This document shows positions 5,839 through 31,754 of a stretch of 32,000 nucleotides of DNA, piece by piece. Within the stretch, counting starts at the first letter, position 1; the number at the start of each line of letters is the position of its first letter. The notes below the pieces were generated by a model. That model made no database searches and had not been told where the DNA came from. It was given only the letters and a program-made list of their open reading frames with translations. The position numbers and the translations under genes are program-made. This stretch comes from Formosa sp. Hel1_33_131 (GTDB lineage: Bacteria > Bacteroidota > Bacteroidia > Flavobacteriales > Flavobacteriaceae): positions 1,620,001 through 1,652,000 of the forward strand of contig NZ_CP017260.1 in the NCBI RefSeq assembly GCF_001735745.1. Reading direction: 5' to 3'.

Positions 5839-5842
5839 TAAA

Positions 5843-6469
5843 ATGTCTAAAAAACAGACACTTTTATTAGTCGCGGTGATTCTTTTTATAGATCAAGCCT
5901 CAAAAATATACATCAAAACCCACTTTGAGCTAGGGCAAGAACTGAGGGTTTTTGAAGGATTCAGAATATTTTTTATTGAAAATGAAGGCATGGCGTGGGG
6001 CGCCAAACTCAGTGATATTTCTTCTTATATATCCGATTCGAGTGCCAAATTATTTTTAACCATTTTTAGAATTTTTGCTGTTTGTGGCATTGGTTATTGG
6101 CTGAATCAAAGCCTCCAGAAAATGACTTCCAAAACTCTGACTGTGGCGTTAGCATTGGTTTTTTCGGGAGCGTTGGGAAATATTATCGACTCCGTTTTTT
6201 ACGGTATTATTTTCGATGGAAGTTTGGGACAAACGGCGACCTTATTTGCCTCGGAAGGCTATGGAGATCTATTTCATGGCAAAGTAGTGGACATGCTTTA
6301 TTTTCCTTTATTTAAAGGCTATTTCCCCGAATGGATTCCATTTGTCGGAGGGAATTACTTCTCCTTTTTTGACCCTGTTTTTAACGTTGCAGATATAGCG
6401 ATTAGTACGGGCGTTGGATTGCTTTTAGTGTTTAATAAAAAAGTATTCCCAAAGTCCTTAACGACTTAA
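5843..6469 (+). CDS. lspA: Lipoprotein signal peptidase (signal peptidase II)
   Basis: Motifs ENEGMAWG and FNVADIAISTG are characteristic of LspA, with 4 TM helices. The conserved ileS-lspA linkage is present. ATG at 5843 (MSKKQTLLL) is preferred over the track start 5816, which overlaps the upstream gene. Confidence 0.9.
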   Translation: MSKKQTLLLVAVILFIDQASKIYIKTHFELGQELRVFEGFRIFFIENEGMAWGAKLSDISSYISDSSAKLFLTIFRIFAVCGIGYWLNQSLQKMTSKTLTVALALVFSGALGNIIDSVFYGIIFDGSLGQTATLFASEGYGDLFHGKVVDMLYFPLFKGYFPEWIPFVGGNYFSFFDPVFNVADIAISTGVGLLLVFNKKVFPKSLTT

Positions 6470-16840: not shown

Positions 16841-16870
16841 TTGTAATCTGTTTAATAATCCTTACTTTTG
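16841..16870 (+). promoter_or_regulatory. Candidate Bacteroidota-type promoter (TTG-N19-TActTTTG) for the TonB-dependent receptor operon
   Basis: TTG at 16841-16843 and TAnnTTTG at 16863-16870 with 19-nt spacing, 40 nt upstream of the ATG at 16910. Confidence 0.35.
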
Positions 16871-16909
16871 TTTAATAAATTTAACCAATTATTAAACATA
16901 ATTAAAATT

Positions 16910-19459
16910 ATGAAAAAGATTACACAATTATTATCTTTCGCCTTGATGGTGTGTACGTTATCAGTTGCTGCTCAAAGCACTGTGACAGGTACAATCATTG
17001 ACGCTGGACAACAAGCGCCTTTACCAGGAGCTACTGTTGTAGAGAAAGGAACGTCAAATGGCGTATCTTCTGATTTCGATGGAAACTTTACGATTAACTC
17101 TTCAAGCTCAACTGGTGAGGTCGTAATTTCCTATGTTGGCTTTGTGTCTAAAACAATTTCTTTTACTGGGAATATGGACCTCGGATCCGTTTCACTAGAA
17201 GCAAGTGAATTCGGTTTAGAAGAAGTTCAAATTTTTGCTTCTGTTGCAGTGGACAGAAAAACACCCGTAGCAGTTTCAACAATCAGAGCGGCTGAAATTG
17301 AACTTAAATTAGGAACACAAGAATTTCCTGAAATTTTAAAATCAACTCCAGGTGTCTATGCGACAAAAGCTGGAGGTGGATATGGTGATGGTAGAATTAA
17401 CCTTAGAGGGTTTAACTCAGAAAATGTTGCCGTACTTATAAATGGTATTCCAGTCAATGACATGGAAAATGGTCGTGTATACTGGAGTAACTGGGCTGGA
17501 CTCGGAGATGTTACTTCTTCTATGCAGGTTCAAAGAGGTCTTGGAGCTTCTCGAGTAGCAGTACCTTCTATTGGAGGAACCATTAATATTATCACTAAAA
17601 CAACGGATGTTGAAACTGGGGGTAATGTGTTTTCGTCAATTGCAAATGATGGATATGAAAAACTAGGTGCAACTTACTCTACAGGGGTTATGGATAATGG
17701 TCTTGCCGCTACAGTTTCTGCAGCGAGAACAAGAGGAAATGGCTATGTTGATGGTACGGAATTTAATGGTGTATCTTATTTCTTAAACTTATCTAAAGAA
17801 ATCAATGACGCTCATAAAATATCATTCTCAGTGTTTGGAGCTAAACAACGTCATGGACAAAGACAAAACAGACAGTTAATTGAAACGTTCAAAAACTCAG
17901 AAAGAGGCAGAAAATTCAATTCAGATTGGGGTTACAAAAATGGAGAAGTTACTCATCAAGAGGATAACTTCTACAACAAACCACAAATGTCATTAAATCA
18001 CTACTGGACAATTAGTGAAAAGTCTAGTTTATCTACTGTATTGTATGCTTCTTTTGGCTCTGGTGGCGGAGGAGGAACTGCAGGTGAGAATAAATTTATT
18101 TTTGACGGTTCAGGTTACAGTGATTACAGAAATGGTTTATATGGAACTATAGATTTCGATCAAATTGTTGACGAAAACATCGCAAGAGGAGCACTCGGAT
18201 CAGAAACAGTTTTGAGAGCATCTCACAACGACCACAATTGGTTTGGAGCGTTATCGACTTTCAAAACAGATTTTTCAGACGATCTTGTTTTGTTAACTGG
18301 ATTAGATGTTAGAAGCTACACAGGTAAGCACTATCAAACAGTTACAGATCTTTTAGGAGGACAGTACTTCCTAGATAACAATAACGAAAACAATCCTAAT
18401 GCAGCATTGCAAGTAGGAGATAAAAGAAGTTATTATAATGACGGTAATGTAGGTTGGTTAGGAGCATTTGCTCAGTTAGAGTATGATGTGAATGAAAACT
18501 TCAACACATTTGTTTCTTTAGCATTATCAAATACATCGTACCAAAGAGTTGATTATTTCAATTACTTAGATTCTGATGCATTACAAACTACAGATACTTA
18601 CAATTTCGTAGGCTACAGTGCTAAAGGGGGTGCTAACTACAGAATTGATGCTAAAAACAATGTTTTTGTAAACATTGGATACTTTGAAAAAGCTGCAGGT
18701 TTTGATGCAGTATTCTTGAACTTCAATAATGAGACGATTAATGCAGATGCAGAAAATCAAAAAATTACTAGTTTTGAATTAGGGTACGGATACAGATCAG
18801 GTAAGTTGTCTGCGAATGTAAATGTATACTATACTGCATGGAGAGACAGAACAGAAACTCAAAGTTTCAGACAGCCAGACAATACGAATGCTGTTGCTAA
18901 TATTTTAGGTGTGGATGCTGTTCACCAAGGACTTGAATTAGATTTTGTTTACAGAGCTACAGAAAAATTAAAAATCACAGGAATGGCTTCATTTGGTGAT
19001 TGGAGATGGGATAGCGATGTAGAAAATGTTCAAATTGTAAATGAAGATCAAGAAGTTGTTGACAATGTAAACTTATTTATAAAAGATTTACATGTTGCTG
19101 ATGCAGCTCAAACAACAATGGCTTTAGGAATTAATTATAAATTAACTCCAAAAACAAAGTTTATTGTTGATTACAATTACTATGCTAATATTTATGCTGA
19201 TTTTGATCCAAGTGATAGAGGAACTCAAGGAGCTCCAGACGCATGGAAAATGCCTGATTACGGCTTGTTTGACACAGTAATCAGTCATACTTTCGACTTA
19301 GGACCTTTTGAAACGACTATGACGGCTCGCATGAACAATGCGTTTGACACGGAATATATTTCAGATGCTAGAGATGGATCTGGATCTGTATCTAGCACTG
19401 CTTTGGTGTATTATGGTTACGGAAGAACATTCAGCCTTGGCGCAAAACTTAATTTCTAA
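16910..19459 (+). CDS. TonB-dependent receptor with N-terminal carboxypeptidase-regulatory-like domain
   Basis: Signal peptide (MKKITQLLSFALMVCTLSVAAQ). CarboxypepD_reg-like segment (TVTGTIIDAGQQAPLPGATVVEKGT..SDFDGNFTI), a plug region (INLRGFNSENVAVLINGIPVND) and a long beta-barrel ending in ...GAKLNF. ATG 16910 is preferred over the TTG at 16868. Confidence 0.9.
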   Translation: MKKITQLLSFALMVCTLSVAAQSTVTGTIIDAGQQAPLPGATVVEKGTSNGVSSDFDGNFTINSSSSTGEVVISYVGFVSKTISFTGNMDLGSVSLEASEFGLEEVQIFASVAVDRKTPVAVSTIRAAEIELKLGTQEFPEILKSTPGVYATKAGGGYGDGRINLRGFNSENVAVLINGIPVNDMENGRVYWSNWAGLGDVTSSMQVQRGLGASRVAVPSIGGTINIITKTTDVETGGNVFSSIANDGYEKLGATYSTGVMDNGLAATVSAARTRGNGYVDGTEFNGVSYFLNLSKEINDAHKISFSVFGAKQRHGQRQNRQLIETFKNSERGRKFNSDWGYKNGEVTHQEDNFYNKPQMSLNHYWTISEKSSLSTVLYASFGSGGGGGTAGENKFIFDGSGYSDYRNGLYGTIDFDQIVDENIARGALGSETVLRASHNDHNWFGALSTFKTDFSDDLVLLTGLDVRSYTGKHYQTVTDLLGGQYFLDNNNENNPNAALQVGDKRSYYNDGNVGWLGAFAQLEYDVNENFNTFVSLALSNTSYQRVDYFNYLDSDALQTTDTYNFVGYSAKGGANYRIDAKNNVFVNIGYFEKAAGFDAVFLNFNNETINADAENQKITSFELGYGYRSGKLSANVNVYYTAWRDRTETQSFRQPDNTNAVANILGVDAVHQGLELDFVYRATEKLKITGMASFGDWRWDSDVENVQIVNEDQEVVDNVNLFIKDLHVADAAQTTMALGINYKLTPKTKFIVDYNYYANIYADFDPSDRGTQGAPDAWKMPDYGLFDTVISHTFDLGPFETTMTARMNNAFDTEYISDARDGSGSVSSTALVYYGYGRTFSLGAKLNF

Positions 19460-19470
19460 AAAAAAACAAA

Positions 19471-20580
19471 ATGAAAAAAATAATTTATTGTTTAGCAATT
19501 TTAGGAACAACAATGATGAGTTGTAACCCTAATGAAGACATCTATAACGAATTAGATGCACAAGCAAGTCCAATTGTTGGTGACGCCGTTTATACGCTCA
19601 CAGATGATGATTACGATGCTTTAAGTTTAAACTATGGCAATTTTAATTCAACAGAAGATGCCAAGGATATGATTCCAGCGTTATTGTCAGATATATTTCC
19701 TGTTTGGGGACTTGGTTCAAGTGCTTTAGTATCATTTAATATATACAATCCAATTTCTACATATGACGCTGAAGTTTATGAGCTTTCATCAGCAGAATGT
19801 AATGCAATCACAGGTCAATCATATGGAAACTTTTCAGACAGTGGACATGTATATGATTACTTAGATGCTACTTACCCTAGCCCAACTGAAGGTGATTTTG
19901 TTTCTTTAAGATATGATTACTATTCTGGAAGCGTAAGTACGCTCACAAATGGTTTTTCTTATGAAAACGGAAATTGGAAAAAGTTTACTGGATTTACAGA
20001 AGATCAGTACTCTGCAATGGGAGAAGGTTATCCTAACTTTTCAAGTTCAGATGAAGCAGACATTAAAATTCCTGTTGCTTTGTTAGACGTATATCAATTT
20101 GACCCAAGAAGTCCTGGCGATGTTGTGTTATCTATGTATGAATTATATATGGGCAGTGGAGTTACGAAAAGTTTTACGGCAGCATATATCTTTGACGGAG
20201 TAGCATTTCATCCCTATGAAAACGAAATTGTAGAAACAGTTCAGTTTGGTCATGATGGAGAAAGCTGGGTTCCAGACAATACAATCAAGTATGATCTAAC
20301 TTCAGATGATGTTGCTTTGATATCAAGTGCATTTATAGATCAATACCCTGGTCCTGCTGATAACGTCGGATATTTTGAAAGTTTTGACAGAAGAACTTCA
20401 AGCTCTAATTACTGGTCAGACAGTATGTTACTTGAAGCATTCAATGTATTATTAGATGATATGGATGCTTCTGCTGAGGAAGGACAAAAATATGTTCTTA
20501 AATTTGTTGTCTATACTGGTGCAACAGGAAACGAAATCATGAGTCTTATTAAAACGGACGGAATGTGGGTTGTTAACTAA
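19471..20580 (+). CDS. Lipoprotein with four internal repeat modules, partner of the upstream TonB-dependent receptor
   Basis: Lipobox ...TTMMSC (Cys18) followed by NPNEDIYNE. Starts 11 nt after the TBDR stop. Contains four degenerate ~50-75-aa modules. No family recognised. Confidence 0.7.
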   Translation: MKKIIYCLAILGTTMMSCNPNEDIYNELDAQASPIVGDAVYTLTDDDYDALSLNYGNFNSTEDAKDMIPALLSDIFPVWGLGSSALVSFNIYNPISTYDAEVYELSSAECNAITGQSYGNFSDSGHVYDYLDATYPSPTEGDFVSLRYDYYSGSVSTLTNGFSYENGNWKKFTGFTEDQYSAMGEGYPNFSSSDEADIKIPVALLDVYQFDPRSPGDVVLSMYELYMGSGVTKSFTAAYIFDGVAFHPYENEIVETVQFGHDGESWVPDNTIKYDLTSDDVALISSAFIDQYPGPADNVGYFESFDRRTSSSNYWSDSMLLEAFNVLLDDMDASAEEGQKYVLKFVVYTGATGNEIMSLIKTDGMWVVN

Positions 20581-20609
20581 TACCCCTATACATTTTTTTT
20601 AACATCACA

Positions 20610-20636
20610 AAAGCCATCTATTTTATAGATGGCTTT
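20610..20636 (+). terminator. Terminator-like hairpin between the lipoprotein and endonuclease I genes
   Basis: 11-bp perfect stem AAAGCCATCTA/TAGATGGCTTT with a 5-nt loop. The downstream T tract is interrupted (TTTATGTTTT). Confidence 0.5.
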
Positions 20637-20662
20637 ATGTTTTAATTTTAATATATTTGAGA

Positions 20663-22027
20663 ATGAAAAAAATTATACCAATTTTCCTTTTTACTAGTTT
20701 GTTTATTAATTGTAGTTCGGGAGATGATTCCGGATCAAGCAACCCAGATACAAACAATAATAATAATACAGGTCAGTCTATAGCAGTTGACGACTCCTTT
20801 GACGCCCTAGAAGACACCGACTTTATTATTGAAAACTTATTATCAAATGATACCGTTGAGGACAATGCGGTCATAACCTCCTTTGATGAAACCACAGTGG
20901 AAGGCGGAACCATAGTTGACAATAGAGATGATACGTATATCTATACTCCAGCCGTTAATTTTATTGGAGAAGATTCTTTTACTTATACACTCTGTGATAA
21001 CGACTCGCCAGCCGATTGCTCTACAGCAACAGTGACGATCATCGTTGCAGACCAAGGGAATCCAGTTGCGGAAGACGATGCTCATAATGTTTCTCAAAAC
21101 ACTTCTAAAATAATTACCAATCTATTAGAAAACGACACTGTCATTGATGAAGCGGTCCTTTCTTCAATAGATTCTTCCCAAACCTTGGGCGTTGTTGTGT
21201 TGAACTCTGATGGTTCAGTAGAATACACACCACCAACAAATTACTTGGGTACGGATAGTTTTATGTATAGTATTTGTGATGACGATACTCCAAACAATAC
21301 CTGTTCATCGGCTGTGGTATCAATTACAGTATTAGATTCCTTTTCTTTTAATATTCCAGGCGATTTAATCGGTTATTATACAGGAATTCAGTTTGTTGCA
21401 GACCCAGATTTAATGTATGCTGAATTAGCAAACCATACATCTGAGAACCATACCACAATATTATCGTACACACAACGTCATGACTATTTATATGATGCGG
21501 ATGCCGATTTAACAAATACAAATAATGTTGTTTTGATGTATACTGGAGAAACGCGCTATTGGCAAGAATATACTTCTGGTTCAAACTCCCATTCACCTCA
21601 GACATTTAATACGGAACACGTTTATCCACAATCTTTATTAGGCTCTAATATTGCTTTAACCGATTTACATCACCTAAGAGTGTGCGATGATGATGTTAAT
21701 TCAACACGGAGCAACAAAGCGTTTGCAGATGGAAGTGGAGGCAATTACTTGACATCATCTAACGGATGGTATCCTGGCGACGAATGGCGTGGCGATGTTG
21801 CACGTATGATCTTGTATTTAAATATACGATATGGGGAGAGTTTTGACTCGGTAGGGGATTTGGACCTCTTTATAACTTGGAACATTGAAGATCCAGTATC
21901 AGAATTTGAGAACCAAAGAAATACTGTTATATACTCTGCTCAAGGCAATAGAAACCCTTTTATAGACAACCCTTATTTGGCGACTCTGATTTGGGGTGGT
22001 GATGATGCAGAAAATAAATGGAATTAA
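20663..22027 (+). CDS. Lipoprotein: two cadherin-like (tandem-95-type) repeats fused to an endonuclease I (EndA/Vvn-family) domain
   Basis: Lipobox LFINC. Two ~90-95-aa repeats. C-terminal motifs are typical of periplasmic/extracellular endonuclease I: NTEHVYPQS, RSNKAF, RGDVARMILYLNIRY and QGNRNPFIDNPYLA. ATG 20663 is preferred over the TTG at 20657. Confidence 0.85.
   Translation: MKKIIPIFLFTSLFINCSSGDDSGSSNPDTNNNNNTGQSIAVDDSFDALEDTDFIIENLLSNDTVEDNAVITSFDETTVEGGTIVDNRDDTYIYTPAVNFIGEDSFTYTLCDNDSPADCSTATVTIIVADQGNPVAEDDAHNVSQNTSKIITNLLENDTVIDEAVLSSIDSSQTLGVVVLNSDGSVEYTPPTNYLGTDSFMYSICDDDTPNNTCSSAVVSITVLDSFSFNIPGDLIGYYTGIQFVADPDLMYAELANHTSENHTTILSYTQRHDYLYDADADLTNTNNVVLMYTGETRYWQEYTSGSNSHSPQTFNTEHVYPQSLLGSNIALTDLHHLRVCDDDVNSTRSNKAFADGSGGNYLTSSNGWYPGDEWRGDVARMILYLNIRYGESFDSVGDLDLFITWNIEDPVSEFENQRNTVIYSAQGNRNPFIDNPYLATLIWGGDDAENKWN
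20777..21331 (+). repeat. Two tandem in-frame ~95-aa cadherin-like/tandem-95-type repeats within the nuclease gene
   Basis: Repeat 1: SIAVDDSFDALEDT..LLSNDTVED..YIYTPAVNFIGEDSFTYTLCDNDSPADCSTATVTIIV. Repeat 2: PVAEDDAHNVSQNT..LLENDTVID..VEYTPPTNYLGTDSFMYSICDDDTPNNTCSSAVVSITV. The boundary is at nt 21061/21062. Confidence 0.65.
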
Positions 22028-22569: not shown

Positions 22570-23031
22570 TCAGCGTTTATTTATCATGTACGGGTTTATA
22601 TTATCTTTATGTTTAATTAATCCAGTAAAAAAAGATAAAATTTTAGTATCATCACTAACGATAATTGAAGTAATTAACTTGTTTTTTTTAACAACGAAAA
22701 AGACATCCTCGCTTTTAGGGTAATTTATATTATATGAACTAAATTTTTCGTTATCAATAAAGTCTTTATAAGACATAATATCAAGCTGTTTCATATCTTT
22801 TATTTCACCTCTTAAGAAGTCAATATTAAAATTAAGAAATTTTAATAGTTCAGAATCTGGAATTAAAGAATCTTTTTCTAAATCCAAATATTCATTTATG
22901 TTATCAATATTATATGATTTATCTAAAATCACTTTTTCAATAAATTCTGAAATCAACTCTTTTTTTACATCTTCAGTTTTACAACTAAAAGTCACTATAG
23001 TCAATAATAATATTAGTTTCATCTTTTTCAT
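22570..23031 (-). CDS. Orphan small lipoprotein (153 aa), operonic with the upstream 606-aa lipoprotein; candidate cognate immunity/inhibitor protein
   Basis: Lipobox IVTFSC (Cys17) followed by KTEDVKKE. The ATG is 15 nt after the stop of the 606-aa gene. The gene is very AT-rich and no recognisable family motifs were seen. Confidence 0.6.
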   Translation of the reverse strand: MKKMKLILLLTIVTFSCKTEDVKKELISEFIEKVILDKSYNIDNINEYLDLEKDSLIPDSELLKFLNFNIDFLRGEIKDMKQLDIMSYKDFIDNEKFSSYNINYPKSEDVFFVVKKNKLITSIIVSDDTKILSFFTGLIKHKDNINPYMINKR

Positions 23032-23046
23032 TTTTGCTGTTTTAAA

Positions 23047-24867
23047 TTAACATCCTTTATGAGTAGCAGGTGCATTTCCTGCAGTCGTATTTGTTGTAAC
23101 CCCAGCTGGAGGGGTTAAATTTCTGATATATAATCCAAGTGCTCCAGGGTTAGAGCCACTGCCGCCCGGCCATGTGCCGTTTGCAGCTGGAAGACCAAGA
23201 CCGCCTAGATTTCCAATCTCTATACCAAAATCAGTACAGTTGTAGTTATTCAAATTATAAGTTGATGTAAAATTAATTGATGCATTAATTATTTGTTGAA
23301 GTTGAGCTCCTGTTATGCTAGTTGAAATACTAGCCGTAAAATTTTCATTCCCACTTCCGTCATTTCCTAAAACGGCTGTTCCAGATGTGTTTAATGGACT
23401 TATCCAGTCTGAAACCGGGTAATAACCAAAAACACTCGTATTAACTCCTTGAGAAATAGACACAAAAGAATGACCAACATAACTACCGTCGTTTGCATCT
23501 CCTGATCCCGGAATAGGCTCCTTGGCATAAACAGTAACTACAGCGTCTTGAGTGGCGTCAAAACATTCAAAAAAATCAGTTAAATCTGTAATAGGATTTT
23601 CGGGTCCATCAACAAGTACAATATCATTAAAACTATCAATGTCACTGGTTGTATCCATCATCGCCTCAATAGTGTTTTCAGCAAAGGTTTTAGCTTGAGT
23701 GTACTCATAAAAAGAACCGTTGTTTTTTTCGGCTAAAAAATAAAATATGTTTTCTGTCAATTCGTGATCAGATGACAAATAATAAAATTGTGTTCTATTT
23801 TGAGCATATAGGGTAAAAGTAAACTGGAAAAAATCATATATTATTTTTTGTTTTACGATATGGTCTACTAAAGTGGTTTGTGACGAAGTAACATAAGAAT
23901 TTATCTGTGACACATATACCTTTTCATAGTAATCTTTAATAACATTCTTTATTCCAGAAAAATAATAGGCATAATAATTATTAAATGGACTCGCAGAACT
24001 TGAAGGGTTATAGGCAGGTATTGTTAAGTCATTTGTTGAAAAGTACTGTACCGGAGTTGTATAGTTATGACCATATCCATATGGTGCGAAATTGTTATAA
24101 TTTATACCTACAAAAACCCCTGCCGCTTGCAAAGCAGCCATAACATTAGGTGGTAAGGAGTTTAAAGGAGGTAACGCATACCCTACTCCAGATGCTGAAG
24201 GACCTCCATAGCCACTATTATTAGAATATGGCACCCATATAACTGTAGCGGGACCGTCATCTTCACATGAACATGTATCTCCACTTCTTGCTGAAGTATT
24301 CTTTTTAGAATTAGAATCTATGTCTGTCGTTTCTAAATCAAGGTAGGATATTTTATCCCAAAAGCCATCAAAACTTTGATTATTAGTAGCAACCAGTAAC
24401 TCTTCGTTTGTTAGTTCATATTTTATTAATTGACTCTTCAATTGGTTGTTTTCGTCATAATAGGTGTGTAAATTAATAATTTCATGAAGATTAGTGTTAT
24501 CGGTAGGGAAATCTACTTCAAAAGTATATGAAACCTTACCATTTTCATTTTTTATACTATTATAAGCTTCTGTTTTTATTTGGATGTCTTCAAGGTTTAT
24601 AGGATCATTTTCAGTCCCTTTTCCACTAGATTTCCTCATGCTCTTTGGTGGTGCAATCTCAAATATTTGTTTAATTTTTGATAGGTTTTTCTCCACTTGA
24701 TTTTTTAAATCAACATTATTTATACTTTCTTTGATTTCAACTTTAATTTGTCCTTGTTTTTGAGTTGTTGAAATAGTCTCATCTTTACTACAGGAATTAA
24801 AAGAGAGAAGGGTTAATAAAAATACTAGACTGAAATTTGATAAATTGTTTTTTAGTGTTGTTTTCAT
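23047..24867 (-). CDS. 606-aa predicted surface lipoprotein with a C-terminal permuted papain-like (NlpC/P60-clan, PPPDE/LRAT-like) His...Cys domain
   Basis: Lipobox LLSFNSC (Cys26) followed by SKDE, a K-(D/E)2 surface-export-like signal. The C-terminal region at ~aa 440-565 reads VTVYAKEP..SYVGHSFVSISQG..SVFGYYP......YNLNNYNCTDFGIEIG. This has the order His466 (nt 23470-23472) then Cys544 (nt 23236-23238) within an NCxxF motif. Confidence 0.7.
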   Translation of the reverse strand: MKTTLKNNLSNFSLVFLLTLLSFNSCSKDETISTTQKQGQIKVEIKESINNVDLKNQVEKNLSKIKQIFEIAPPKSMRKSSGKGTENDPINLEDIQIKTEAYNSIKNENGKVSYTFEVDFPTDNTNLHEIINLHTYYDENNQLKSQLIKYELTNEELLVATNNQSFDGFWDKISYLDLETTDIDSNSKKNTSARSGDTCSCEDDGPATVIWVPYSNNSGYGGPSASGVGYALPPLNSLPPNVMAALQAAGVFVGINYNNFAPYGYGHNYTTPVQYFSTNDLTIPAYNPSSSASPFNNYYAYYFSGIKNVIKDYYEKVYVSQINSYVTSSQTTLVDHIVKQKIIYDFFQFTFTLYAQNRTQFYYLSSDHELTENIFYFLAEKNNGSFYEYTQAKTFAENTIEAMMDTTSDIDSFNDIVLVDGPENPITDLTDFFECFDATQDAVVTVYAKEPIPGSGDANDGSYVGHSFVSISQGVNTSVFGYYPVSDWISPLNTSGTAVLGNDGSGNENFTASISTSITGAQLQQIINASINFTSTYNLNNYNCTDFGIEIGNLGGLGLPAANGTWPGGSGSNPGALGLYIRNLTPPAGVTTNTTAGNAPATHKGC

Positions 24868-24947
24868 AATAATTTAGGGTTTTAAAAATTTATATGATTC
24901 AATATTATAAAAACAAAACAATCTTAAAGTCCAGAATTATTAACTTG

Positions 24948-26105
24948 TTAATGATTTTGGACTAATTTTTTATAGTTATTTGGAGTATGTCCTGTGATTT
25001 TTTTAAAAGCATTATAAAAACTTGTCTTTGTATTAAAACCAGATTCAAGTCCAATTGCAGTTATGGTGTATTTGAAATAATCATCATCTAATAATAATTT
25101 TATAGCATTTTCAACACGCATATTATTAATATATTCATTAAAGTTATTATCTGTATTAGAATTTATTATTTGAGATAAATACCCTTCGCTCAAGTTGGTC
25201 TGTTTAGAAATCATTTTAAGACTTAATTTTGGCTTAAGGTATAACCTACGCTTTAAAATGAGATTATTAATTTCCGAAAACTTATTGGGGTTGATATTTT
25301 CTGAGAGCTCATCAATTTCTAATAATTTATTTTGATTTTTTGAAGTGTCTTGATCTTTAGTGATTCTACTTTTTATAATTCTATTTCGGATTTCTCCACG
25401 CTCCTCATAAATACTATTTTGAAAAATTGAAGTATAAGCAATCCAATAAATAAGTACAGAAATACCAATCCATAAAGGATAGTATTGATAATATCCACTG
25501 GGAAAATAAGATTCAAAAACAGTAAGTGAAAGCAACCACAATATGCAAAGAAAAAAACCAAAGATTAGAATCCGTTTAAGCCAAGTAACTGTGATTGGAA
25601 TTTCATTAAAAGAGTCGTTCGCTACTTTCTTTTCATAATCTCTTATGTTTTTAAAAACTAAAAAGATGATTACTAATGAGAACAACAGAGAGCCATACTC
25701 AATCACAAGATTAAAAAACTCAATAACTTTTGAGTTAACCCTAGCTAAATCAGTCAGTATTTGATAGAAAATAGCAGAAGAAAATGGAACTAATAATAAA
25801 AATATATGATGTTTTTTGAAATCATTTTTTAAATAACTTTTCACAAATAAAAAAAACATCGGAACCATTAGGAACTCAAATGGAATAAATATTAGATTGT
25901 TGTTTTCATAACCTGGAGACAAGCCAACATCTAAAAGCCAATATTGTAGATTACTAAAACACAATGCTAGAATAGTAAGAGCTAAAAAAATATTTGTTTT
26001 AGACTTTAGTTTAGGGTTGAAAAATAATATGAAGCTAAAAATTATCCCATGCACTATACCTAGTACAATTAAAATATTGTAGAAATTGAGGTTAAGTGAA
26101 TTCAT
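24948..26105 (-). CDS. Membrane-embedded AraC/XylS-family transcriptional regulator (about 7 TM helices + C-terminal HTH)
   Basis: The C-terminal ~97 aa (nt ~24951-25241) carry the AraC double-HTH signature (LSLKMISKQTNLSEGYLSQIINS....AIGLESGFNTKTSFYNAFKKITGHTPNNYKK). The N-terminal ~235 aa contain about seven hydrophobic helices. ATG 26105 (MNSLNLNFYN) is preferred over the TTG at 26153. Confidence 0.85.
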   Translation of the reverse strand: MNSLNLNFYNILIVLGIVHGIIFSFILFFNPKLKSKTNIFLALTILALCFSNLQYWLLDVGLSPGYENNNLIFIPFEFLMVPMFFLFVKSYLKNDFKKHHIFLLLVPFSSAIFYQILTDLARVNSKVIEFFNLVIEYGSLLFSLVIIFLVFKNIRDYEKKVANDSFNEIPITVTWLKRILIFGFFLCILWLLSLTVFESYFPSGYYQYYPLWIGISVLIYWIAYTSIFQNSIYEERGEIRNRIIKSRITKDQDTSKNQNKLLEIDELSENINPNKFSEINNLILKRRLYLKPKLSLKMISKQTNLSEGYLSQIINSNTDNNFNEYINNMRVENAIKLLLDDDYFKYTITAIGLESGFNTKTSFYNAFKKITGHTPNNYKKLVQNH

Positions 26106-26196
26106 AAATAACTTATTACTGGTTAAAGTTGTGAAAAATAAACATACAATCAAAAATTTCGAGCGAGTTTTTTCCTTTACAAGAAGTTGTTTGTTT

Positions 26197-26389: not shown

Positions 26390-27448
26390 TTACTCCACTT
26401 CTTTAATAACGTGCACATACACAGGAAGGTGATCACTATAGCCCCCAATAAATCCACTATAGGTAAAGCTTCGAAAAGGATAGCCTTTGTATTTTCCTTT
26501 TTTATTAATTAAATAAGGTGCATTAAAGATGCCAGCTTTGTAGAACCTAAACGAACTATAATCGTCATCTAGCAGCGGTTTGCTCACCAAAATCTGATCA
26601 AATAGAAACCAAACCCCTTTGTACGCATTGGTTCCAATCCCTGTTTTATAGATCGCTTCCATTGGGTTGTAAATCCCCTTGAATCCTACGAGACTTTTAT
26701 CCCCTTCAGCTTCTAGGATTTTCTTTACACTATCATTATCAGGATTGTCATTAAGATCTCCCATCGTAAATATTTTGGCATAGGGATCGTTGGATTGAAG
26801 AGAATCAATCAAACGCTTATTAAGGGCTGCTGCTGCCACACGTTTGGAACGACTTTTGGCTTCTCCACCACTTCTAGAAGGCCAGTGGTTTACAATCACA
26901 TGGATCAAATCACCCTCTAAATACCCGCTGACCAGCAGTTGATCTCTTGTGTAATCTCTTTTGTCTTTGCTGTCATCCATGAGTATTAGCTCGTGAGTGC
27001 TTGAACTTAATGGTGTAAATAATGTTTTTTGATACATTAATGCGACATCAATTCCACGCTCGTCTGGAGAATCAAAATGTACAATCCCATAATCTTTTGA
27101 TAGTAAAGCAGGATCATTGGCTAAATCTTCTACAACAGACCTGTTTTCTACTTCCGATAGTCCAATGATTGCAGGCGAATTTTTAGACCCTTCACTTCCT
27201 ATTTGAGAAATAACCTTCGCCATATTTTGGACCTTCTTTTTATAAACTCCCTCCAAATTAGTTTTAAGCTTCATAATAGGGCTAGCCTCATCATATTTAT
27301 TGGGGTCATTGATCGTGTCAAAGAGGTTTTCAACATTATAAAACGCAACCGTATGAATTTTAAATTTTCTTTTTTCTTGCGCCTGGCCTATTGTAAGACA
27401 CAACAGGCTGAAAAACAGCAGTGTATTTGAAATAAATTTTTGAGTCAT
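26390..27448 (-). CDS. Secreted endonuclease/exonuclease/phosphatase (EEP)-family nuclease
   Basis: Signal peptide MTQKFISNTLLFFSLLCLTIGQAQ. EEP motifs are present: VAFYNVENLFD (N-terminal Asn/Glu), GLSEVEN, VIVNHWPSR, MGDLND and the C-terminal YSDHLPVYV. Confidence 0.85.
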   Translation of the reverse strand: MTQKFISNTLLFFSLLCLTIGQAQEKRKFKIHTVAFYNVENLFDTINDPNKYDEASPIMKLKTNLEGVYKKKVQNMAKVISQIGSEGSKNSPAIIGLSEVENRSVVEDLANDPALLSKDYGIVHFDSPDERGIDVALMYQKTLFTPLSSSTHELILMDDSKDKRDYTRDQLLVSGYLEGDLIHVIVNHWPSRSGGEAKSRSKRVAAAALNKRLIDSLQSNDPYAKIFTMGDLNDNPDNDSVKKILEAEGDKSLVGFKGIYNPMEAIYKTGIGTNAYKGVWFLFDQILVSKPLLDDDYSSFRFYKAGIFNAPYLINKKGKYKGYPFRSFTYSGFIGGYSDHLPVYVHVIKEVE

Positions 27449-27560
27449 AGTTTTAGTTTAAAGAAAATTGGTTTTTAAGTTGTTCACAAAAGTAAAGAAA
27501 TTAAAACAAGAAGTATATTTTTGTTTTAGACATATAATTTTTTAACCCAAATTTATTAAT

Positions 27561-30317
27561 ATGAACACACCCAATTTATGCGGTCTGTTTGTGTTTTTTA
27601 ATATTTTCTTTTCGTTCGCTCAGCAAACAATAGTGCAGGGGAGTATTAAAGATATGCTAACAGACCAACCCCTTGAAGGGGTATTAGTGCATTTTGAACA
27701 CACGCAACTTAATACGCTCACCGACGCATTAGGCGAATTTAAGTTTTCTTCAAATGTTCCTCTTGGAGAACAATTTCTTTCTCTAAAGAGAGTCGGCTAT
27801 CTAGTTGCACGCTATCCTATTATTGTCTCAGAAGGACAAATATTGGACATTCAAGACATGATGCTTGAAGTAGACAATTCAGATGACGATTTGTTTACGA
27901 TTACATTATCAGATGATGAGTTAAATTCTGATACGAGCGGTGCAGACAATATTACCGGATTGTTAGCCTCCTCTCAGGACATATTTCAACGCGCAGCAGC
28001 CTTTGAATTTAGTTCCTCCTTTTTTAGAGTTCGTGGACTCAATTCCGATAATGGAACTGTGTTGATGAACGGTATCGAAATGAATAAAATATACAATGGA
28101 AGACCACAATGGAGCAACTGGGGAGGTTTAAATGACATCCTTAGAAACCAAGAGTTAACCACAGGTCTAGCGCCTTCCTCTTATAATTTTGGAGGGATCT
28201 TAGGAACCACCAATATTAACCTAAGAGCATCTGAATACCAAAGTGGTTCTCGTGTCACCTATTCATCTTCTAACAGAAGTTACACCAACAGAGTCATGGC
28301 AACCCATGCTTCTGGGGTGGTGAAAGGGGACTGGTCTTATGCATTTTCTTTAGGAAGACGTTGGGGTAATGAAGGCTATCAAGATGGAACATTTTACAAT
28401 GCAAATTCATTTTTTGTAGCAGTTGAAAAGAAAGTAAACGATAAGCATAGCTTAAACTTTACAGGATTTTATACACCAAACAAGCGTGGAAAATCATCTC
28501 CAAATACGCAAGAAGTGTACGATCTAAAAAATATTAAGTACAACGAATATTGGGGTTACCAAGATGGTGAAAAACGCAACTCGCGTGTCAAACGGATTGC
28601 AGAGCCTGTTTTGATGTTGAACCATTACTGGGACTTCACAGATAAAACAAGTCTAAACACCAATATTGCTTACCAATTTGGAGAGCTCGGAAATAGCCGT
28701 TTGGATTATGCCGGTGGTGCCAATCCAAGTCCTTCTTATTACCAAGGCTTGCCAAGTTATTTTTTGGCAGACACGGACGGACCTGATTTAGCGGGTGCTT
28801 ATGACGCTTACCAAAATTTCACGGAAGAAGGTCAATTAGATTGGAACCGTCTTTACGACGCCAACGTCACCAACAATATTACAGGGGATAATGCGGCCTA
28901 TGTGTTGTATGAAGACCGTAGTGACGACACACAATTATCGGTGAATACCATCATTAACTCAGAAATCTCTGAACATGTAACCTTAAATGCAGCCATCAAC
29001 TACAAACGTCTAAAGTCGCATAATTTTGCAGAAATCATTGACATGTTAGGAAGTACTACAGGCTATTTAAATATAGATTCTTTTGACCAAGTTCAGTTTG
29101 ACTTGCAAAACCCAAACCAAATTGTTGGCGAAGGCGACACCTTTAGATATAACTACAACTTAGAGGCGAACATACTTAGCATGTTTGCACAAGCTCAGTT
29201 TACATACAATAAGGTAGACTTTTTCTTGGCGGTCAGCAATACTAAAACGAGTTACCAAAGAGAAGGCCTGTATCAAAGTGAAGTTTATGCAGACAACTCA
29301 CTAGGTAAAGGCGAAAAAGTAGAGTTTACAGGCATCGGTACTAAAGGTGGATTCACGTATAAATTTTCTGGAAAGCATTTATTAGTTGCCAATGTGGGTT
29401 ATTTAACAAAGGCACCAACCATTCGTAATACCTTTTCTAGTTCAAGAGATAACCATACCATTGTAGGAGACCAATCGGGCTTTGGTATTAACGAAGAAAA
29501 AATCAGCACGTTTGATCTGAACTATATTTATAAATCTCCGATTGTCAAAACAAGATTGACGGGGTATTTCACCAAGATGCAAGATGCGAATGAAGTTTCG
29601 TTTTATTATGCAGATGGAATTAGTGGAGTGGATTCAGGCACTGCTTTTGTACAAGAAGTTCTTGAAGGAATTGACAAAAGACATTTAGGAATCGAATTTG
29701 GGATTGAAGCGCAAGTGACGCCAACCATTAAATTAACAGGAGTTGCTTCTGTAGGTCAATATACCTATGACAACAATCCAAATTTATTATTAACTTCTAG
29801 TGACTTTATTGATGGATTAAATTTCGGGGAAGCGAACTTGGAAAATTATAAAATTGCAGGAGGCCCACAACGGGCTGCTTCTTTAGGTTTTGAATACCGC
29901 GACCCTAACTACTGGTGGTTTGGTACCACGGCAAACTTTATGTCCAATGCTTATGTTGATGTGTCTCCTTTAACGCGTACTGAGAATTTTTATCTGGATA
30001 CGGATGGGATTCCATTTCCAGACTACGATCCAACACTTGCAAAAGAGTTGCTAAGACAAGAAAAATTTGATTCTTATATGCTATGGAATGCCGTAGGAGG
30101 GAAGTCTTGGAAAGTGGGTAACAAGTACATCAGTCTGTTTGTAAGTTTAAACAACATTTTGAATACCCAATTTAAAACGGGTGGATTCGAGCAAGGGCGT
30201 AACGCTAATTTTCAATCTTTAAAAGAAGATACGAGTGCCCCAAAACGACGTTTTGGACCGAAATACTGGTTTGGTCGTGGGACCACTTACTTCATAAACC
30301 TTAATCTTAGATTCTAA
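27561..30317 (+). CDS. TonB-dependent receptor-like outer-membrane protein with N-terminal carboxypeptidase-regulatory-like domain
   Basis: 918 aa with signal peptide ...FFSFAQQ. CarboxypepD_reg-like segment (TIVQGSIKDMLTDQPLEGVLVHFEHT..TDALGEFKF), a plug-like segment (FRVRGLNSDNGTVLMNGIEMN) and a beta-barrel ending ...YFINLNLRF. Divergent from the EEP nuclease gene. Confidence 0.88.
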   Translation: MNTPNLCGLFVFFNIFFSFAQQTIVQGSIKDMLTDQPLEGVLVHFEHTQLNTLTDALGEFKFSSNVPLGEQFLSLKRVGYLVARYPIIVSEGQILDIQDMMLEVDNSDDDLFTITLSDDELNSDTSGADNITGLLASSQDIFQRAAAFEFSSSFFRVRGLNSDNGTVLMNGIEMNKIYNGRPQWSNWGGLNDILRNQELTTGLAPSSYNFGGILGTTNINLRASEYQSGSRVTYSSSNRSYTNRVMATHASGVVKGDWSYAFSLGRRWGNEGYQDGTFYNANSFFVAVEKKVNDKHSLNFTGFYTPNKRGKSSPNTQEVYDLKNIKYNEYWGYQDGEKRNSRVKRIAEPVLMLNHYWDFTDKTSLNTNIAYQFGELGNSRLDYAGGANPSPSYYQGLPSYFLADTDGPDLAGAYDAYQNFTEEGQLDWNRLYDANVTNNITGDNAAYVLYEDRSDDTQLSVNTIINSEISEHVTLNAAINYKRLKSHNFAEIIDMLGSTTGYLNIDSFDQVQFDLQNPNQIVGEGDTFRYNYNLEANILSMFAQAQFTYNKVDFFLAVSNTKTSYQREGLYQSEVYADNSLGKGEKVEFTGIGTKGGFTYKFSGKHLLVANVGYLTKAPTIRNTFSSSRDNHTIVGDQSGFGINEEKISTFDLNYIYKSPIVKTRLTGYFTKMQDANEVSFYYADGISGVDSGTAFVQEVLEGIDKRHLGIEFGIEAQVTPTIKLTGVASVGQYTYDNNPNLLLTSSDFIDGLNFGEANLENYKIAGGPQRAASLGFEYRDPNYWWFGTTANFMSNAYVDVSPLTRTENFYLDTDGIPFPDYDPTLAKELLRQEKFDSYMLWNAVGGKSWKVGNKYISLFVSLNNILNTQFKTGGFEQGRNANFQSLKEDTSAPKRRFGPKYWFGRGTTYFINLNLRF

Positions 30318-30338
30318 TAACACAAAAAATATAAACAC

Positions 30339-31754
30339 ATGAAAACAATTAATTTCAAAAACTATCTACGAGCACTCTTCGCGAGTGTTGCTATTGTGTC
30401 TTGTGTACAAGACGACGATTTTTCGGTCCCAGAAAGTTTAGGGGATGAAGAAAACAAAAATTTAAAGACTCTTTTAGAGCGCATTGAAACTGGACACGTC
30501 CAGTTAATTACAATCGAACAATTAAAAAGTCAGTTTTACTCAGGAGAAGATGCCACTTTAATTTCTTCAGAAATAGCCATTAAAGGCTTTGTTTCTTCAT
30601 CGGATTTAACAGGGAATTTTTATAAAGAATTTTTTATTCAAAATTCAACAGAAAATGCAACAGATGCAATTAAAATCTCATTAAATCAAGTCAATTCATA
30701 CAATCGGTTTAATAAGGGTAGAGAAATTTATATTTACTTAAAAGGATTGTTTTTAGGAGAGGTAAAAAGCGGAGATGGTGTATATACGATTGGAGGAAAT
30801 ACTAAGGACGGTGAAGTTGAGACCTTGACCTCAAACAGGTATCCATCTCATATTTTTAGATCTGCAAGTACAGAAATGATTATTCCAAAATCAGTGTCCA
30901 TACTTGAAAGCAAGGATATAGGGGTTTTCGTTACTTTCGACAAGGTCGAGTTTCCAATCAGCTCTGTAGGTCAGCCTTTTGTTGATCCAGCAGATGATTA
31001 TGACAGTCATAAAAACGTTCAACGTTGTTCAGGCTTTTCGTATTACAATTTTATATTAGAAACGAGTTCATTTGCAAGTTTTAAGAACGAAGTTATAACT
31101 GATGGAGGCGGCTCCATTTCTGGGATTGTGTCTAAAACCTACAACGGTTCAGAATTGGTTTTAGTTTTAAATACTACAGAGGATGTAGAATTAAATTCAT
31201 CTCGTTGTACTCTATCAGATTCGAATGAGTTTTCAGTTATTTTTGAAGATGATTTTGAGTCCTATCCAAATAATTCGTCAATAACGGGTGTTTGGAACAA
31301 TTTTATAGAAGCCGGAAGCAAAAAATGGAAAATTAAAACAACAACTGACAGTCAAAATCAAGGAAGTAAAATCGCTCAAATAGGAGCCTATAATTCTGGA
31401 GACCCTTCTAATATTGCTTGGTTAATTTCGCCACCTATTAACTTGGACTCACAATCAATAGAGTTTATCAACTTTCAATCATCCAACAGTTTTAGTGACA
31501 ATAGCAATTTGGAATTGCTAATTTCAACAGACTGGAATGCCACCAACTCAGGAGTTATTTCAGCGACATGGTCAGCCCTGCCAGGAATTATAGTTTCGGA
31601 TTCAGAATCTTATCAGAACTGGATTGACTCTAGCTATATAGATTTAAGTGCTTATTCTGGAACGGCCTTTATTGCTTTTAAATACACTGGTGGGGGGACC
31701 AATAACAGTGGTACTTTTGAAATTGACAACTTTCAAGTCATCACTCAGAATTAG
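30339..31754 (+). CDS. Surface lipoprotein: DUF5689-like N-terminal (OB-fold-like) region + C-terminal choice-of-anchor-J/MAM-like domain
   Basis: Lipobox AIVSC followed by VQDDDFS. Starts 21 nt after the TBDR stop. The N-terminal IAIKGFVSSSDLTGNFYKEFFIQNSTENATDAIKISL...REIYIYLKGLFLG pattern matches my recollection of DUF5689. The C-terminal FEDDFES..W......KW...........A.I.AY...D.SN.AWLISPPINL....FEIDNFQV resembles choice-of-anchor J. Families recalled from memory, not searched. Confidence 0.72.
   Translation: MKTINFKNYLRALFASVAIVSCVQDDDFSVPESLGDEENKNLKTLLERIETGHVQLITIEQLKSQFYSGEDATLISSEIAIKGFVSSSDLTGNFYKEFFIQNSTENATDAIKISLNQVNSYNRFNKGREIYIYLKGLFLGEVKSGDGVYTIGGNTKDGEVETLTSNRYPSHIFRSASTEMIIPKSVSILESKDIGVFVTFDKVEFPISSVGQPFVDPADDYDSHKNVQRCSGFSYYNFILETSSFASFKNEVITDGGGSISGIVSKTYNGSELVLVLNTTEDVELNSSRCTLSDSNEFSVIFEDDFESYPNNSSITGVWNNFIEAGSKKWKIKTTTDSQNQGSKIAQIGAYNSGDPSNIAWLISPPINLDSQSIEFINFQSSNSFSDNSNLELLISTDWNATNSGVISATWSALPGIIVSDSESYQNWIDSSYIDLSAYSGTAFIAFKYTGGGTNNSGTFEIDNFQVITQN

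Follow-up and report, generated by a model that had tools for sequence, protein, structure and literature searches.

The 32,000-nucleotide (nt) stretch of the Formosa sp. Hel1_33_131 genome analysed here (the window; contig NZ_CP017260.1) encodes FORMB_15470, a 606-residue hypothetical protein whose minus-strand open reading frame (ORF; 23047-24867) found an identical match in a protein search. It is followed by a small gene for a 153-residue lipoprotein. We propose that the two genes form the toxin/immunity pair of a polymorphic-toxin system built on a lipoprotein carrier, an overall explanation to which we assign a probability of roughly 0.7. The narrower claim, that they constitute a toxin/immunity module of some kind, is very likely on comparative sequence evidence. 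Modularity of the large protein, the swap of a cassette and the linkage of the partner gene together place the locus among polymorphic toxin/immunity systems by comparative standards. The preliminary description of this stretch had weighed an effector/immunity arrangement equally against a surface amidase or lipase with a dedicated inhibitor. The former is favoured by the swapping of domains, by a cassette breakpoint that is exact and by immunity homologs that travel with the toxin domain, and the latter is now unlikely. The elements that carry the proposal are as follows.

23047..23637, minus strand: C-terminal toxin domain (amino acids (aa) ~411-606 plus stop), predicted permuted papain-like cysteine hydrolase (AlphaFold2 (AF2), Foldseek and hhalign)
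23470..23472, minus strand: codon of His466, predicted general base, invariant, where strand E66-73 of the model begins
23236..23259, minus strand: codons of Tyr537-Asn-Leu-Asn-Asn-Tyr-Asn543-Cys544, Cys544 being the predicted nucleophile, where helix H144-154 of the model starts
22570..23031, minus strand: 153-aa lipoprotein, predicted cognate immunity protein, 15 nt downstream of the toxin gene in the same orientation
22584..23632, minus strand: exchangeable cassette of toxin domain and immunity gene (blastn against the syntenic locus L008)

The toxin domain and its partner are exchanged as a cassette

A search of 5.8 billion proteins returned 45 relatives of the 606-aa protein. The resemblance runs through to the C-terminus in only four of them, P0002-P0004 and the N-terminally truncated P0016, and P0045 shares residues 337-606 only. 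The remaining relatives align over residues 1 to ~405, with 77-92% identity in the closest set or 40-58%, and are unrelated beyond. BLASTP alignments break at aa 404-406, and the homolog alignment shows a sharp junction just past the motif QAK-x-FA-x3-I-x-A (aa ~392-405), which ends a helical pre-toxin bundle and beyond which the homologs diverge. In the same position, the relatives carry Tae4, Tox-MPTase3, an SprT-like zincin, DUF6973, DUF4056 or an AHH nuclease as alternative C-termini. The family hence combines a conserved N-terminal region with unrelated C-terminal toxin domains, as polymorphic toxins do.

The exchange is visible at the DNA level in L008, whose gene order (Exo_endo_phos_3, AraC-type regulator, toxin, small lipoprotein and 143-aa membrane protein) matches that of the window. 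At the protein level, the flanking genes are 75-90% identical and toxin residues 1-405 are 75-86% identical, whereas residues 406-606 are 43% identical and the downstream protein is not alignable. The blastn alignment has 86% identity down to window position 23633 (codon ~411-412), none thereafter, and 82.5% again from 22583, within the last codons of the 153-aa gene. As DNA homology is broken only over 22584-23632, the unit exchanged comprises the C-terminal domain together with the small gene. The whole locus had been taken for a horizontally acquired island, which the syntenic, 75-90% identical flanks in L008 contradict. A recent genomic island covering the entire locus was consequently rejected, only the C-terminal domain and the immunity gene having been replaced. 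The low G+C content of the locus extends over the conserved AraC gene.

Polymorphic toxins are further marked by orphan toxin/immunity cassettes in the vicinity of full-length genes. L005 has one such cassette, several loci have extra immunity copies, and the window contains none of these. In L005, a stand-alone 170-aa Tox-MPTase3 ORF with a partner of its own comes after a gene of the DUF6973 type and the small partner of that gene, and the stand-alone ORF starts exactly at the post-junction sequence of a full-length Tox-MPTase3 homolog. Such an orphan-cassette layout is known from contact-dependent inhibition (CDI) and Rhs loci (PMC3482391). The carrier-less cassette occupies L005:8183-9361 and has a 221-aa lipoprotein as partner. 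A 68%-identical copy of this partner is found at L007:2807-3469 with the toxin absent, that is, as an orphan immunity gene.

This polymorphism also bears on a quite different explanation, in which the 606-aa protein is a housekeeping or nutritional surface hydrolase acting on algal or bacterial debris, no weapon, and the inhibitor merely protects against self-damage during export. The genome comes from an algal-bloom specialist, the locus lies among nutrient-uptake genes (TonB-dependent receptors and secreted nucleases), and surface lipoproteins bearing a lipoprotein export signal (LES) typically serve nutrient acquisition (PMC5080379). However, the same carrier bears at least six unrelated domains, including the known toxin modules Tae4, Tox-MPTase3 and AHH, and the C-terminal domain has been swapped together with its partner between close relatives. 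Moreover, orphan cassettes and extra immunity copies exist, and such polymorphism marks conflict systems (PMC3482391) rather than metabolic enzymes. We consider the nutritional explanation improbable.

The partner lipoprotein co-varies with the toxin domain

The 153-aa protein had been described as a tiny orphan lipoprotein. It does lie 15 nt downstream of the toxin gene, but it is a member of a phylum-wide family and no orphan. Homologs are encoded directly downstream of P0049 from Ichthyenterobacterium magnum, a protein made up of nothing but the C-terminal domain (E 4e-25), and of P0045, whose N-terminus is completely different (E 2e-30).

A scan for copies of the toxin domain, with one genome per species, found 169 copies, and 79 loci were retrieved. 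They derive from Flavobacteriia, Cytophagia, Sphingobacteriia, Chitinophagia, Saprospiria and Marinilabiliales, in addition to two contigs of metagenome-assembled genomes (MAGs) labelled Micavibrio and Janthinobacterium. Most of these loci have, starting at most ~40 nt from the toxin stop, an ORF of ~120-190 aa that encodes a signal peptide. An iterative hidden Markov model (HMM), built with the signal peptides trimmed off, placed 46 of 75 downstream ORFs in the family of the 153-aa protein, the rest forming families of 9, 5, 3, 2, 2 and 2. As a control, the same HMM was run against all 1,240 six-frame ORF segments from these loci. Each of its 56 matches lies on the toxin strand; 47 begin at the toxin stop, and the remainder are additional copies in the vicinity. 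When each toxin domain was compared with its nearest neighbour, the partner families agreed in 56 of 68 cases, where 28 agreements were expected and 500 label shuffles gave 39 at most; the downstream proteins also differ by C-terminal domain type. The system therefore has an adjacent downstream immunity gene that co-varies with the toxin domain, as expected of polymorphic toxins.

The Micavibrio-labelled L026 and the Janthinobacterium-labelled L055 bear the sole non-Bacteroidota labels among the 79 loci. Both are contigs that are short or come from MAGs. In L026, the downstream protein has the same first 40 residues as its counterpart in the Polaribacter locus L025, so probably this contig was mis-binned and no transfer between phyla took place. 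Extra immunity genes of the 153-aa type stand 0.4-1.6 kb downstream of the toxin, and once 4.6 kb upstream (L016, L028, L030, L034, L042, L064 and L083), which suggests immunity-gene arrays. In the window, the immunity gene (22570-23031) is the most AT-rich gene of the region, with a G+C fraction of 0.219 compared to 0.358 for the whole window. The mature immunity lipoprotein begins with C-K-T-E-D, having a Lys and two acidic residues within positions +2 to +5, so that it might itself be surface-exposed; its homologs (C-Q-S-Q-D-K and C-N-S-Q-E-N) fit the LES less well.

The C-terminal domain resembles permuted papain-like enzymes

The C-terminal domain defines a family of 2,156 clusters at 50% identity with E at or below 1e-3, and 660 with E at or below 1e-30 (HMMER search of 1.84 billion representatives), for which neither Pfam nor NCBIfam holds a model. 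In ~160 of 180 matches among the family members retrieved, the domain ends at most two residues from the protein C-terminus. A domain of ~125 residues had been described here; it is indeed present but larger, spanning aa ~411-606. The motifs listed earlier all lie at the positions given: LSFNSC at aa 21-26, CSKDE at 26-30, VTVYAKEP at 444-451, YVGHSFVSISQG at 463-474, VFGYYP at 479-484, ITGAQLQQIINAS at 518-530 and YNLNNYNCTDFGIEIG at 537-552. Likewise, nt 23173-23550 do encode aa 440-565, and His466 and Cys544 are separated by 78 residues in the sequence. Two spacer lengths had been given as 13 and 7 residues and are in fact 11 and 6.

His466, Tyr537, Leu539, Asn543 and Cys544 are invariant in 30 diverse homologs collected by an unbiased HMM search. 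The same holds for His466, Tyr537, Asn543 and Cys544 in all 81 genomic copies, a set partly ascertained by pattern. Positions that are invariant or nearly so comprise Cys435, Gly465-His466, Tyr483-Pro484, Tyr537, Leu539, Asn543-Cys544, Asp546, the loop W-x-x-G-x-G-S-N-P-G-x-L-G and the last Cys. The GGxGSNPGxLG loop (aa 568-578) is invariant and the terminal Cys606 is conserved.

The AF2 model of the domain has a predicted local distance difference test score (pLDDT) of 91.7 and a predicted template modelling score (pTM) of 0.88. It consists of five β-strands, the second of which is opened by His466; next come one helix, the short strand YNL and another helix, with Cys544 as its first residue. 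The core of PPPDE and CLN5 is likewise composed of five strands and two helices with a His-Tyr-Cys centre (PMC9012467). Structural similarity search against PDB using Foldseek gave CLN5 (PDB 6r99) as the top match, with an E-value of 0.039, a probability of 0.77 and a template modelling (TM) score of 0.37; the other weak matches include papain-like cysteine enzymes. Among viral models, the top match was a picornavirus polyprotein (probability 0.85), the aligned part of the polyprotein not being visible. Some picornavirus 2A proteins belong to the H-rev107/LRAT group.

Profile comparisons point in the same direction. Sub-threshold Pfam matches were obtained to PPPDE in 8 of 30 members and to LRAT in one, all of them over the helix and the Y-x-L-x3-N-C-x-x-F segment, and the PPPDE matches span profile positions 81-119 only. 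On this profile evidence, the domain is a distant relative of PF05903, not a member. The sequences of human PPPDE/DeSI-1 and PLAAT3 were identified as PDB 3ebq and 4fa0, respectively, by identity in a PDB search. The Tyr-to-Cys spacing and the N-C-x-x-F motif are identical to those of PPPDE (Y101...N107-C108 in 3ebq) and PLAAT3 (Y106...N112-C113 in 4fa0), and the gap from His to Cys is 78 residues here, 70 in 3ebq and 90 in 4fa0. Alignment of the family profile against 3ebq using hhalign covered 51 columns and placed Y537/N543/C544 onto Y101/N107/C108. Its score of 27.6 (P 0.0012, z~5.7) compares with 12.8 +/- 2.6 for 60 shuffled targets (maximum 22.0). Such a margin, together with the invariant residues, sets the motif apart from a chance occurrence. 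The hhalign match to PLAAT3 was marginal (score 18) and weaker than that to PPPDE, and E. coli YiiX, of the YaeF/YiiX permuted branch, gave nothing. A PDB-sequence profile search with the C-terminal alignment returned a spurious acetyltransferase fragment only. SidE_DUB, weakly matched by one of the 30 members in an alignment that stops before Cys544, was rejected as a relative.

The preliminary description had assigned the domain, from its His-before-Cys order and NCxxF motif, to the permuted branch of the NlpC/P60 papain-like clan. The invariant residues, the AF2 topology and the CLN5, PPPDE and LRAT matches uphold this assignment, each match falling below its formal threshold. As in permuted papain-like NlpC/P60 enzymes, the His precedes the Cys and both are invariant. 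The predicted nucleophile sits in Y-x-L-x3-N-C-x-x-F, and in the model the Cys starts a helix that follows a sheet of five strands. CLN5 led the fold matches and PPPDE the profile matches, but none reached a formal threshold. Since several individually weak lines converge, we regard a permuted papain-like enzyme as the likely identity of the domain, as judged from sequence and model.

If instead the domain were a binding module or pseudoenzyme, the His/Cys motif would be structural. The sub-threshold fold and family matches would fit such a module, as would the conserved Cys pair, which suggests structural roles for cysteines here. But H466, Y537, N543 and C544 are invariant among members only 30-60% identical overall, and they are spaced as in the catalytic motif of two enzyme families characterised by experiment (PMC9012467). 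In addition, Cys544 caps a helix in the model, as papain-like nucleophiles do. We regard a non-catalytic domain as very improbable.

The resemblance to PPPDE and CLN5 raises another alternative, namely an effector against algae or protists that acts as a surface PPPDE-like deubiquitinase/deSUMOylase or depalmitoylase, comparable to APD1/APD2 of Amoebophilus. In favour of it, ubiquitin-like modifiers or S-acyl groups of eukaryotes are the substrates of PPPDE/CLN5 relatives (PMC9012467), and Bacteroidetes are known to direct lipobox-anchored polymorphic effectors against a eukaryotic host (PMC3482391). The organism also lives in association with microalgae, and the weak SidE_DUB match would agree. 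That match is confined to one of 30 members and ends before Cys544, however. Most loci carry a tightly linked, co-varying partner with a signal peptide, as expected for antibacterial self-protection, whereas such partner genes are generally absent beside anti-eukaryotic effectors. The sister domains also include Tae4, a peptidoglycan amidase. An anti-eukaryotic role appears slightly less probable still than the nutritional one.

The carrier is a predicted surface lipoprotein

The carrier part of the protein comprises the following segments.

24790..24867, minus strand: signal peptide with lipobox (aa 1-26), MKTTLKNNLSNFSLVFLLTLLSFNS followed by Cys, recognised by sequence pattern only
24775..24792, minus strand: LES C26-S-K-D-E-T31, a match to C-X-K-(D/E)2-X
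24328..24750, minus strand: N-terminal β-rich carrier domain (aa ~40-180; AF2, block pLDDT 55-79)
23968..24321, minus strand: Gly/Tyr/Pro-rich linker (aa ~183-300), largely disordered (pLDDT mostly below 50), with a CxC conserved at aa 199/201
23650..23871, minus strand: helical pre-toxin bundle (aa ~333-406) of four helices (pLDDT 84-93)

Searches of Pfam, NCBIfam and PDB sequences with the whole 606-aa protein returned nothing above threshold for any part. The earlier statement that the N-terminal ~410 residues match nothing recognised agrees with these results. The AF2 model of the N-terminal region is mediocre (pLDDT 63 overall); the region has no Pfam match and its model no fold match. 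Its profile search found 47 protein clusters only, so this particular carrier is narrowly distributed. The linker is 86% conserved in the syntenic L008 homolog despite its predicted disorder, and the pre-toxin bundle is also common to P0045, whose N-terminus otherwise differs.

The N-terminus, including the signal peptide, the Cys and the LES, is kept in homologs, and Cys26, predicted to be lipidated, would open the mature protein. The optimal signal C-X-K-(D/E)2-X was established experimentally in Capnocytophaga (Lauber et al. 2016, PMC5080379). In this organism, which also belongs to the Flavobacteriaceae, the LES is enough to shift a periplasm-facing lipoprotein onto the cell surface (PMC5080379). 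In Bacteroides, LES-type signals are reported to send lipoproteins into outer-membrane vesicles as well (PMC6222051, PMC10319031). The 606-aa protein, for which a K-(D/E)2-type export signal had been claimed, reads LSFNS-C26-S-K-D-E-T. The lipobox Cys, itself recognised by pattern, is thus followed by an exact optimal LES, which is the signature of a surface-exposed Bacteroidota lipoprotein. Judged from these residues, surface display is somewhat better supported than its absence. A simple heuristic detected a lipobox in 88 of 126 full-length proteins with the same C-terminal domain, 79 of which have at least two acidic residues at positions +2 to +7. This LES-like acidic stretch indicates that the domain is habitually borne by export-signal lipoproteins with many different N-terminal regions. 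The gene for LspA (lipoprotein signal peptidase II) lies at window 5816-6469 on the plus strand, between the IleRS gene and an opposite-strand 187-aa ORF. It is an ordinary gene, yet it shows that the enzyme needed to process the predicted lipoproteins is present.

The export signals also bear on whether the protein could be cargo of a type VI or type IX secretion system (T6SS or T9SS), its N-terminal hydrophobic segment being incidental. Tae4 and related domains are classically T6SS effectors, as the Pfam name records, and one related locus stands near the T9SS-type genes CHU_C and PorP/SprF. However, the signal peptide, the Cys and the exact LES are conserved across the family, and T6SS effectors lack Sec signals. 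The C-terminus is a toxin domain ending in a conserved Cys, with no match to Por_Secre_tail, and the window contains no T6SS or T9SS genes. A T6SS effector was accordingly rejected on the lipobox signal peptide and on the absence of Hcp, VgrG, PAAR or adaptor genes from the window. T9SS cargo was likewise rejected, as the toxin domain occupies the C-terminus, where no sorting domain was matched in Pfam. Secretion by either system is hardly to be expected.

Proposed mechanism and target of the toxin

We propose that the 606-aa protein would be exported by Sec and lipidated at Cys26, and that its C-X-K-(D/E)2 signal would flip it to the cell surface and probably also send it into outer-membrane vesicles; display at both sites is suggested because of this signal. 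The C-terminal domain would act as a hydrolase or acyl-transferase with a predicted centre of His466, Tyr537 and Cys544, and Asn543 beside the nucleophile. Most likely, it would cleave an amide, ester or thioester bond in the envelope of the target cell. Action in the envelope is favoured because the partner is a secreted lipoprotein, the sister domains Tae4 and the zincins are envelope hydrolases, and Cys435 and Cys606 form a conserved pair, which points to a disulfide that forms outside the cytoplasm. The 153-aa lipoprotein would bind and block the toxin in the producer and its kin. More speculatively, the N-terminal domain and linker might serve in receptor binding or release at the target cell, and the adjacent AraC-type regulator might control toxin expression.

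With regard to the substrate, peptidoglycan is what canonical NlpC/P60 toxins cleave. CLN5 and PPPDE are reported as depalmitoylases and also as weak deSUMOylases/deubiquitinases (PMC9012467), and PLAAT3 is named a phospholipase A/acyltransferase in PDB. Because acyl esters and thioesters are the substrates of those permuted-branch members that have been characterised, a lipid or lipoprotein target would, by analogy, be at least as likely as peptidoglycan.

Several points weigh against the toxin/immunity explanation and its enzymatic component. To our knowledge, no mechanism is known that takes a surface-exposed lipoprotein enzyme into the periplasm of a neighbour, and the window holds no secretion or exchange machinery, including T6SS and T9SS genes. 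An AHH nuclease, found in one family member, would need access to the cytoplasm and weakens the candidate rule, tried here, that the carrier delivers periplasm-acting toxins only. The L008 C-terminal domain is 43% identical and yet its downstream protein is not detectably related, so pairing holds by subclade and not across the whole family. The lipobox F-N-S-C, judged by pattern, is non-canonical by E. coli rules. Each structural or profile match is below convention: the Foldseek match to CLN5 at E 0.039 and TM 0.37; the best of 30 PPPDE matches at 16.2 bits (E 0.0096), compared to the gathering cutoff of 29.2 bits of Pfam PF05903 (Peptidase_C97); and the hhalign match to 3ebq with a probability of 19% (single-sequence template).

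A much broader idea, which we put forward as doubtful, is a phylum-wide route of antagonism in Bacteroidota that would operate without dedicated secretion systems. Lipidated enzymatic toxins on many different small carriers would be displayed through the LES at the surface or in vesicles, be delivered to the envelopes of neighbouring cells and be countered by a lipoprotein immunity family. Their commonest warhead would be a hitherto unnamed PPPDE/CLN5-like enzyme acting on acylated envelope components (lipoproteins or phospholipids), not on peptidoglycan.

Neighbourhood of the locus

The gene directly upstream of the toxin encodes a regulator with a multi-pass membrane N-terminal half.

24948..26153, minus strand: membrane-anchored AraC-family regulator (HTH_18 at 8e-17)

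The mechanical ORF of this regulator starts at a TTG and has 401 aa, whereas its relatives start at an internal ATG that gives 385 aa, probably the true length. An AraC-type gene is the upstream neighbour in L002-L004, L008 and L010 and is absent in L005; it keeps this place in three different genomes, but not in all. From its position, the AraC-family protein may regulate the toxin operon. An AT-rich inverted repeat at window 24928-24963, with a 16-bp stem and a 4-nt loop, lies over the stop of the AraC gene and the 80-nt spacer before the toxin start, and could be a terminator or an operator. A scan for sigma-70 promoters gave values near shuffle expectation and is uninformative for Bacteroidota.

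The toxin locus is flanked by two groups of genes. At window 16868-22027 are a TonB-dependent receptor, a 369-aa lipoprotein and a cadherin/Big_9-Endonuclease I lipoprotein, and at 26390-31754 are Exo_endo_phos_3, a CarboxypepD_reg receptor-like protein and DUF5689. These two groups of TonB-dependent-receptor-like proteins and secreted nucleases may scavenge extracellular nucleic acid. Farther away, a 757-aa patatin-like phospholipase fused to an Omp85-superfamily barrel is encoded at 9774-12047 on the plus strand.

Implications

Marine Flavobacteriia such as Formosa dominate the succession after algal blooms, and how strains exclude one another is little understood. The locus provides a concrete candidate weapon/immunity pair that differs between related genomes. 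More generally, an unannotated toxin domain with more than 2,000 clusters at 50% identity in all major Bacteroidota classes, together with its main immunity family, has neither a Pfam nor an NCBIfam model, and the two families could make thousands of 'hypothetical proteins' annotatable. The present analysis suggests that the LES pathway, so far tied to nutrient acquisition and the pore-forming BSAPs, may also display modular enzymatic toxins. The domain in addition offers a relative of the PPPDE/CLN5 enzymes that is bacterial and easy to express; the human substrates of these enzymes remain debated.

Comparison with known systems

The closest relatives of the permuted domain itself are probably PPPDE/CLN5 and LRAT. 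PPPDE/DeSI (PF05903, 3ebq/2wp7) and CLN5 (6r99) share with it the His-Tyr-Cys order, the Y-x-L-x3-N-C-x-x-F motif, and five strands followed by two helices with the Cys opening the second. CLN5 is the best fold match and PPPDE the best profile match, the sequence similarity being limited to ~50 residues around and after the Cys. Unlike both, the bacterial domain has an N-terminal segment with a conserved Cys, the GGxGSNPGxLG loop and a C-terminal tail ending in Cys. The eukaryotic PPPDE and CLN5 enzymes are cytosolic and lysosomal, respectively, whereas the bacterial domain is predicted to be extracytoplasmic, is fused to toxin carriers and is paired with immunity proteins. LRAT/H-rev107 (PLAAT) and the picornavirus 2A H-box/NC proteins have the same permuted, His-first order and the NC-x-x-F nucleophile motif, but the LRAT triad has a second His for which the Formosa domain family offers no conserved equivalent.

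As a system, the locus resembles CdiA, Rhs, MafB and similar toxins (Zhang et al. 2012, PMC3482391) in its constant trafficking N-terminal part, variable toxin part, fixed junction, downstream immunity gene and orphan cassettes, and the Tae4, Tox-MPTase3 and AHH domains are common to the Formosa carrier family and the known polymorphic toxin systems. Unlike them, the Formosa protein has only ~600 aa and no RHS or filamentous-haemagglutinin repeats, PAAR/VgrG, TANFOR domain or releasing peptidase. The papain-like toxin domains listed by Zhang et al. all have the Cys before the His, whereas the present domain is permuted. The sole lipoprotein immunity family then known was Imm65 (PMC3482391); compared to this exception, lipoprotein-type partners are the rule for the present toxin domain.

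The closest architectural analogue is SitA of myxobacteria, in which a lipobox, a ~375-380-aa 'escort domain' and polymorphic C-terminal toxins are accompanied by an immunity gene alongside (Vassallo et al. 2017, PMC5562445; 2021, PMC8546572). Both have a lipobox, a conserved N-terminal region, a modular toxin C-terminus, a neighbouring immunity gene and a disordered segment after or near the anchor, the comparison covering architecture alone. SitA resides in the inner leaflet of the outer membrane, passes between cells by TraAB outer-membrane exchange and delivers cytoplasm-acting nucleases, against which its immunity proteins are cytoplasmic. The Formosa system differs by an LES after the anchor, toxin domains that are mostly envelope hydrolases, and an immunity protein that is itself a lipoprotein. 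It may be viewed as the Bacteroidota counterpart of SitA.

Within Bacteroidota, partial relatives are the lipobox-anchored APD1/APD2 of Amoebophilus (PMC3482391), the TANFOR toxins (PMC7073777) and the LES-bearing BSAP pore-formers. The BSAP/CDCL toxins of Bacteroidales (PMC12853789, PMC11169675) are likewise antibacterial, LES-directed surface lipoproteins, but they are MACPF/CDC-like pore-formers on the target surface, without an exchangeable enzymatic domain or such adjacent immunity. An export-signal lipoprotein carrier, exchangeable enzymatic domains and lipoprotein immunity are combined in none of APD1/APD2, TANFOR or BSAP. The literature searched, which did not extend to every journal, contained no description of the carrier, of DUF6973, or of the C-terminal domain as a toxin. 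Altogether, polymorphic lipoprotein toxins are known as a kind, and what is new is the toxin-domain family and its immunity family, both of which are phylum-wide.

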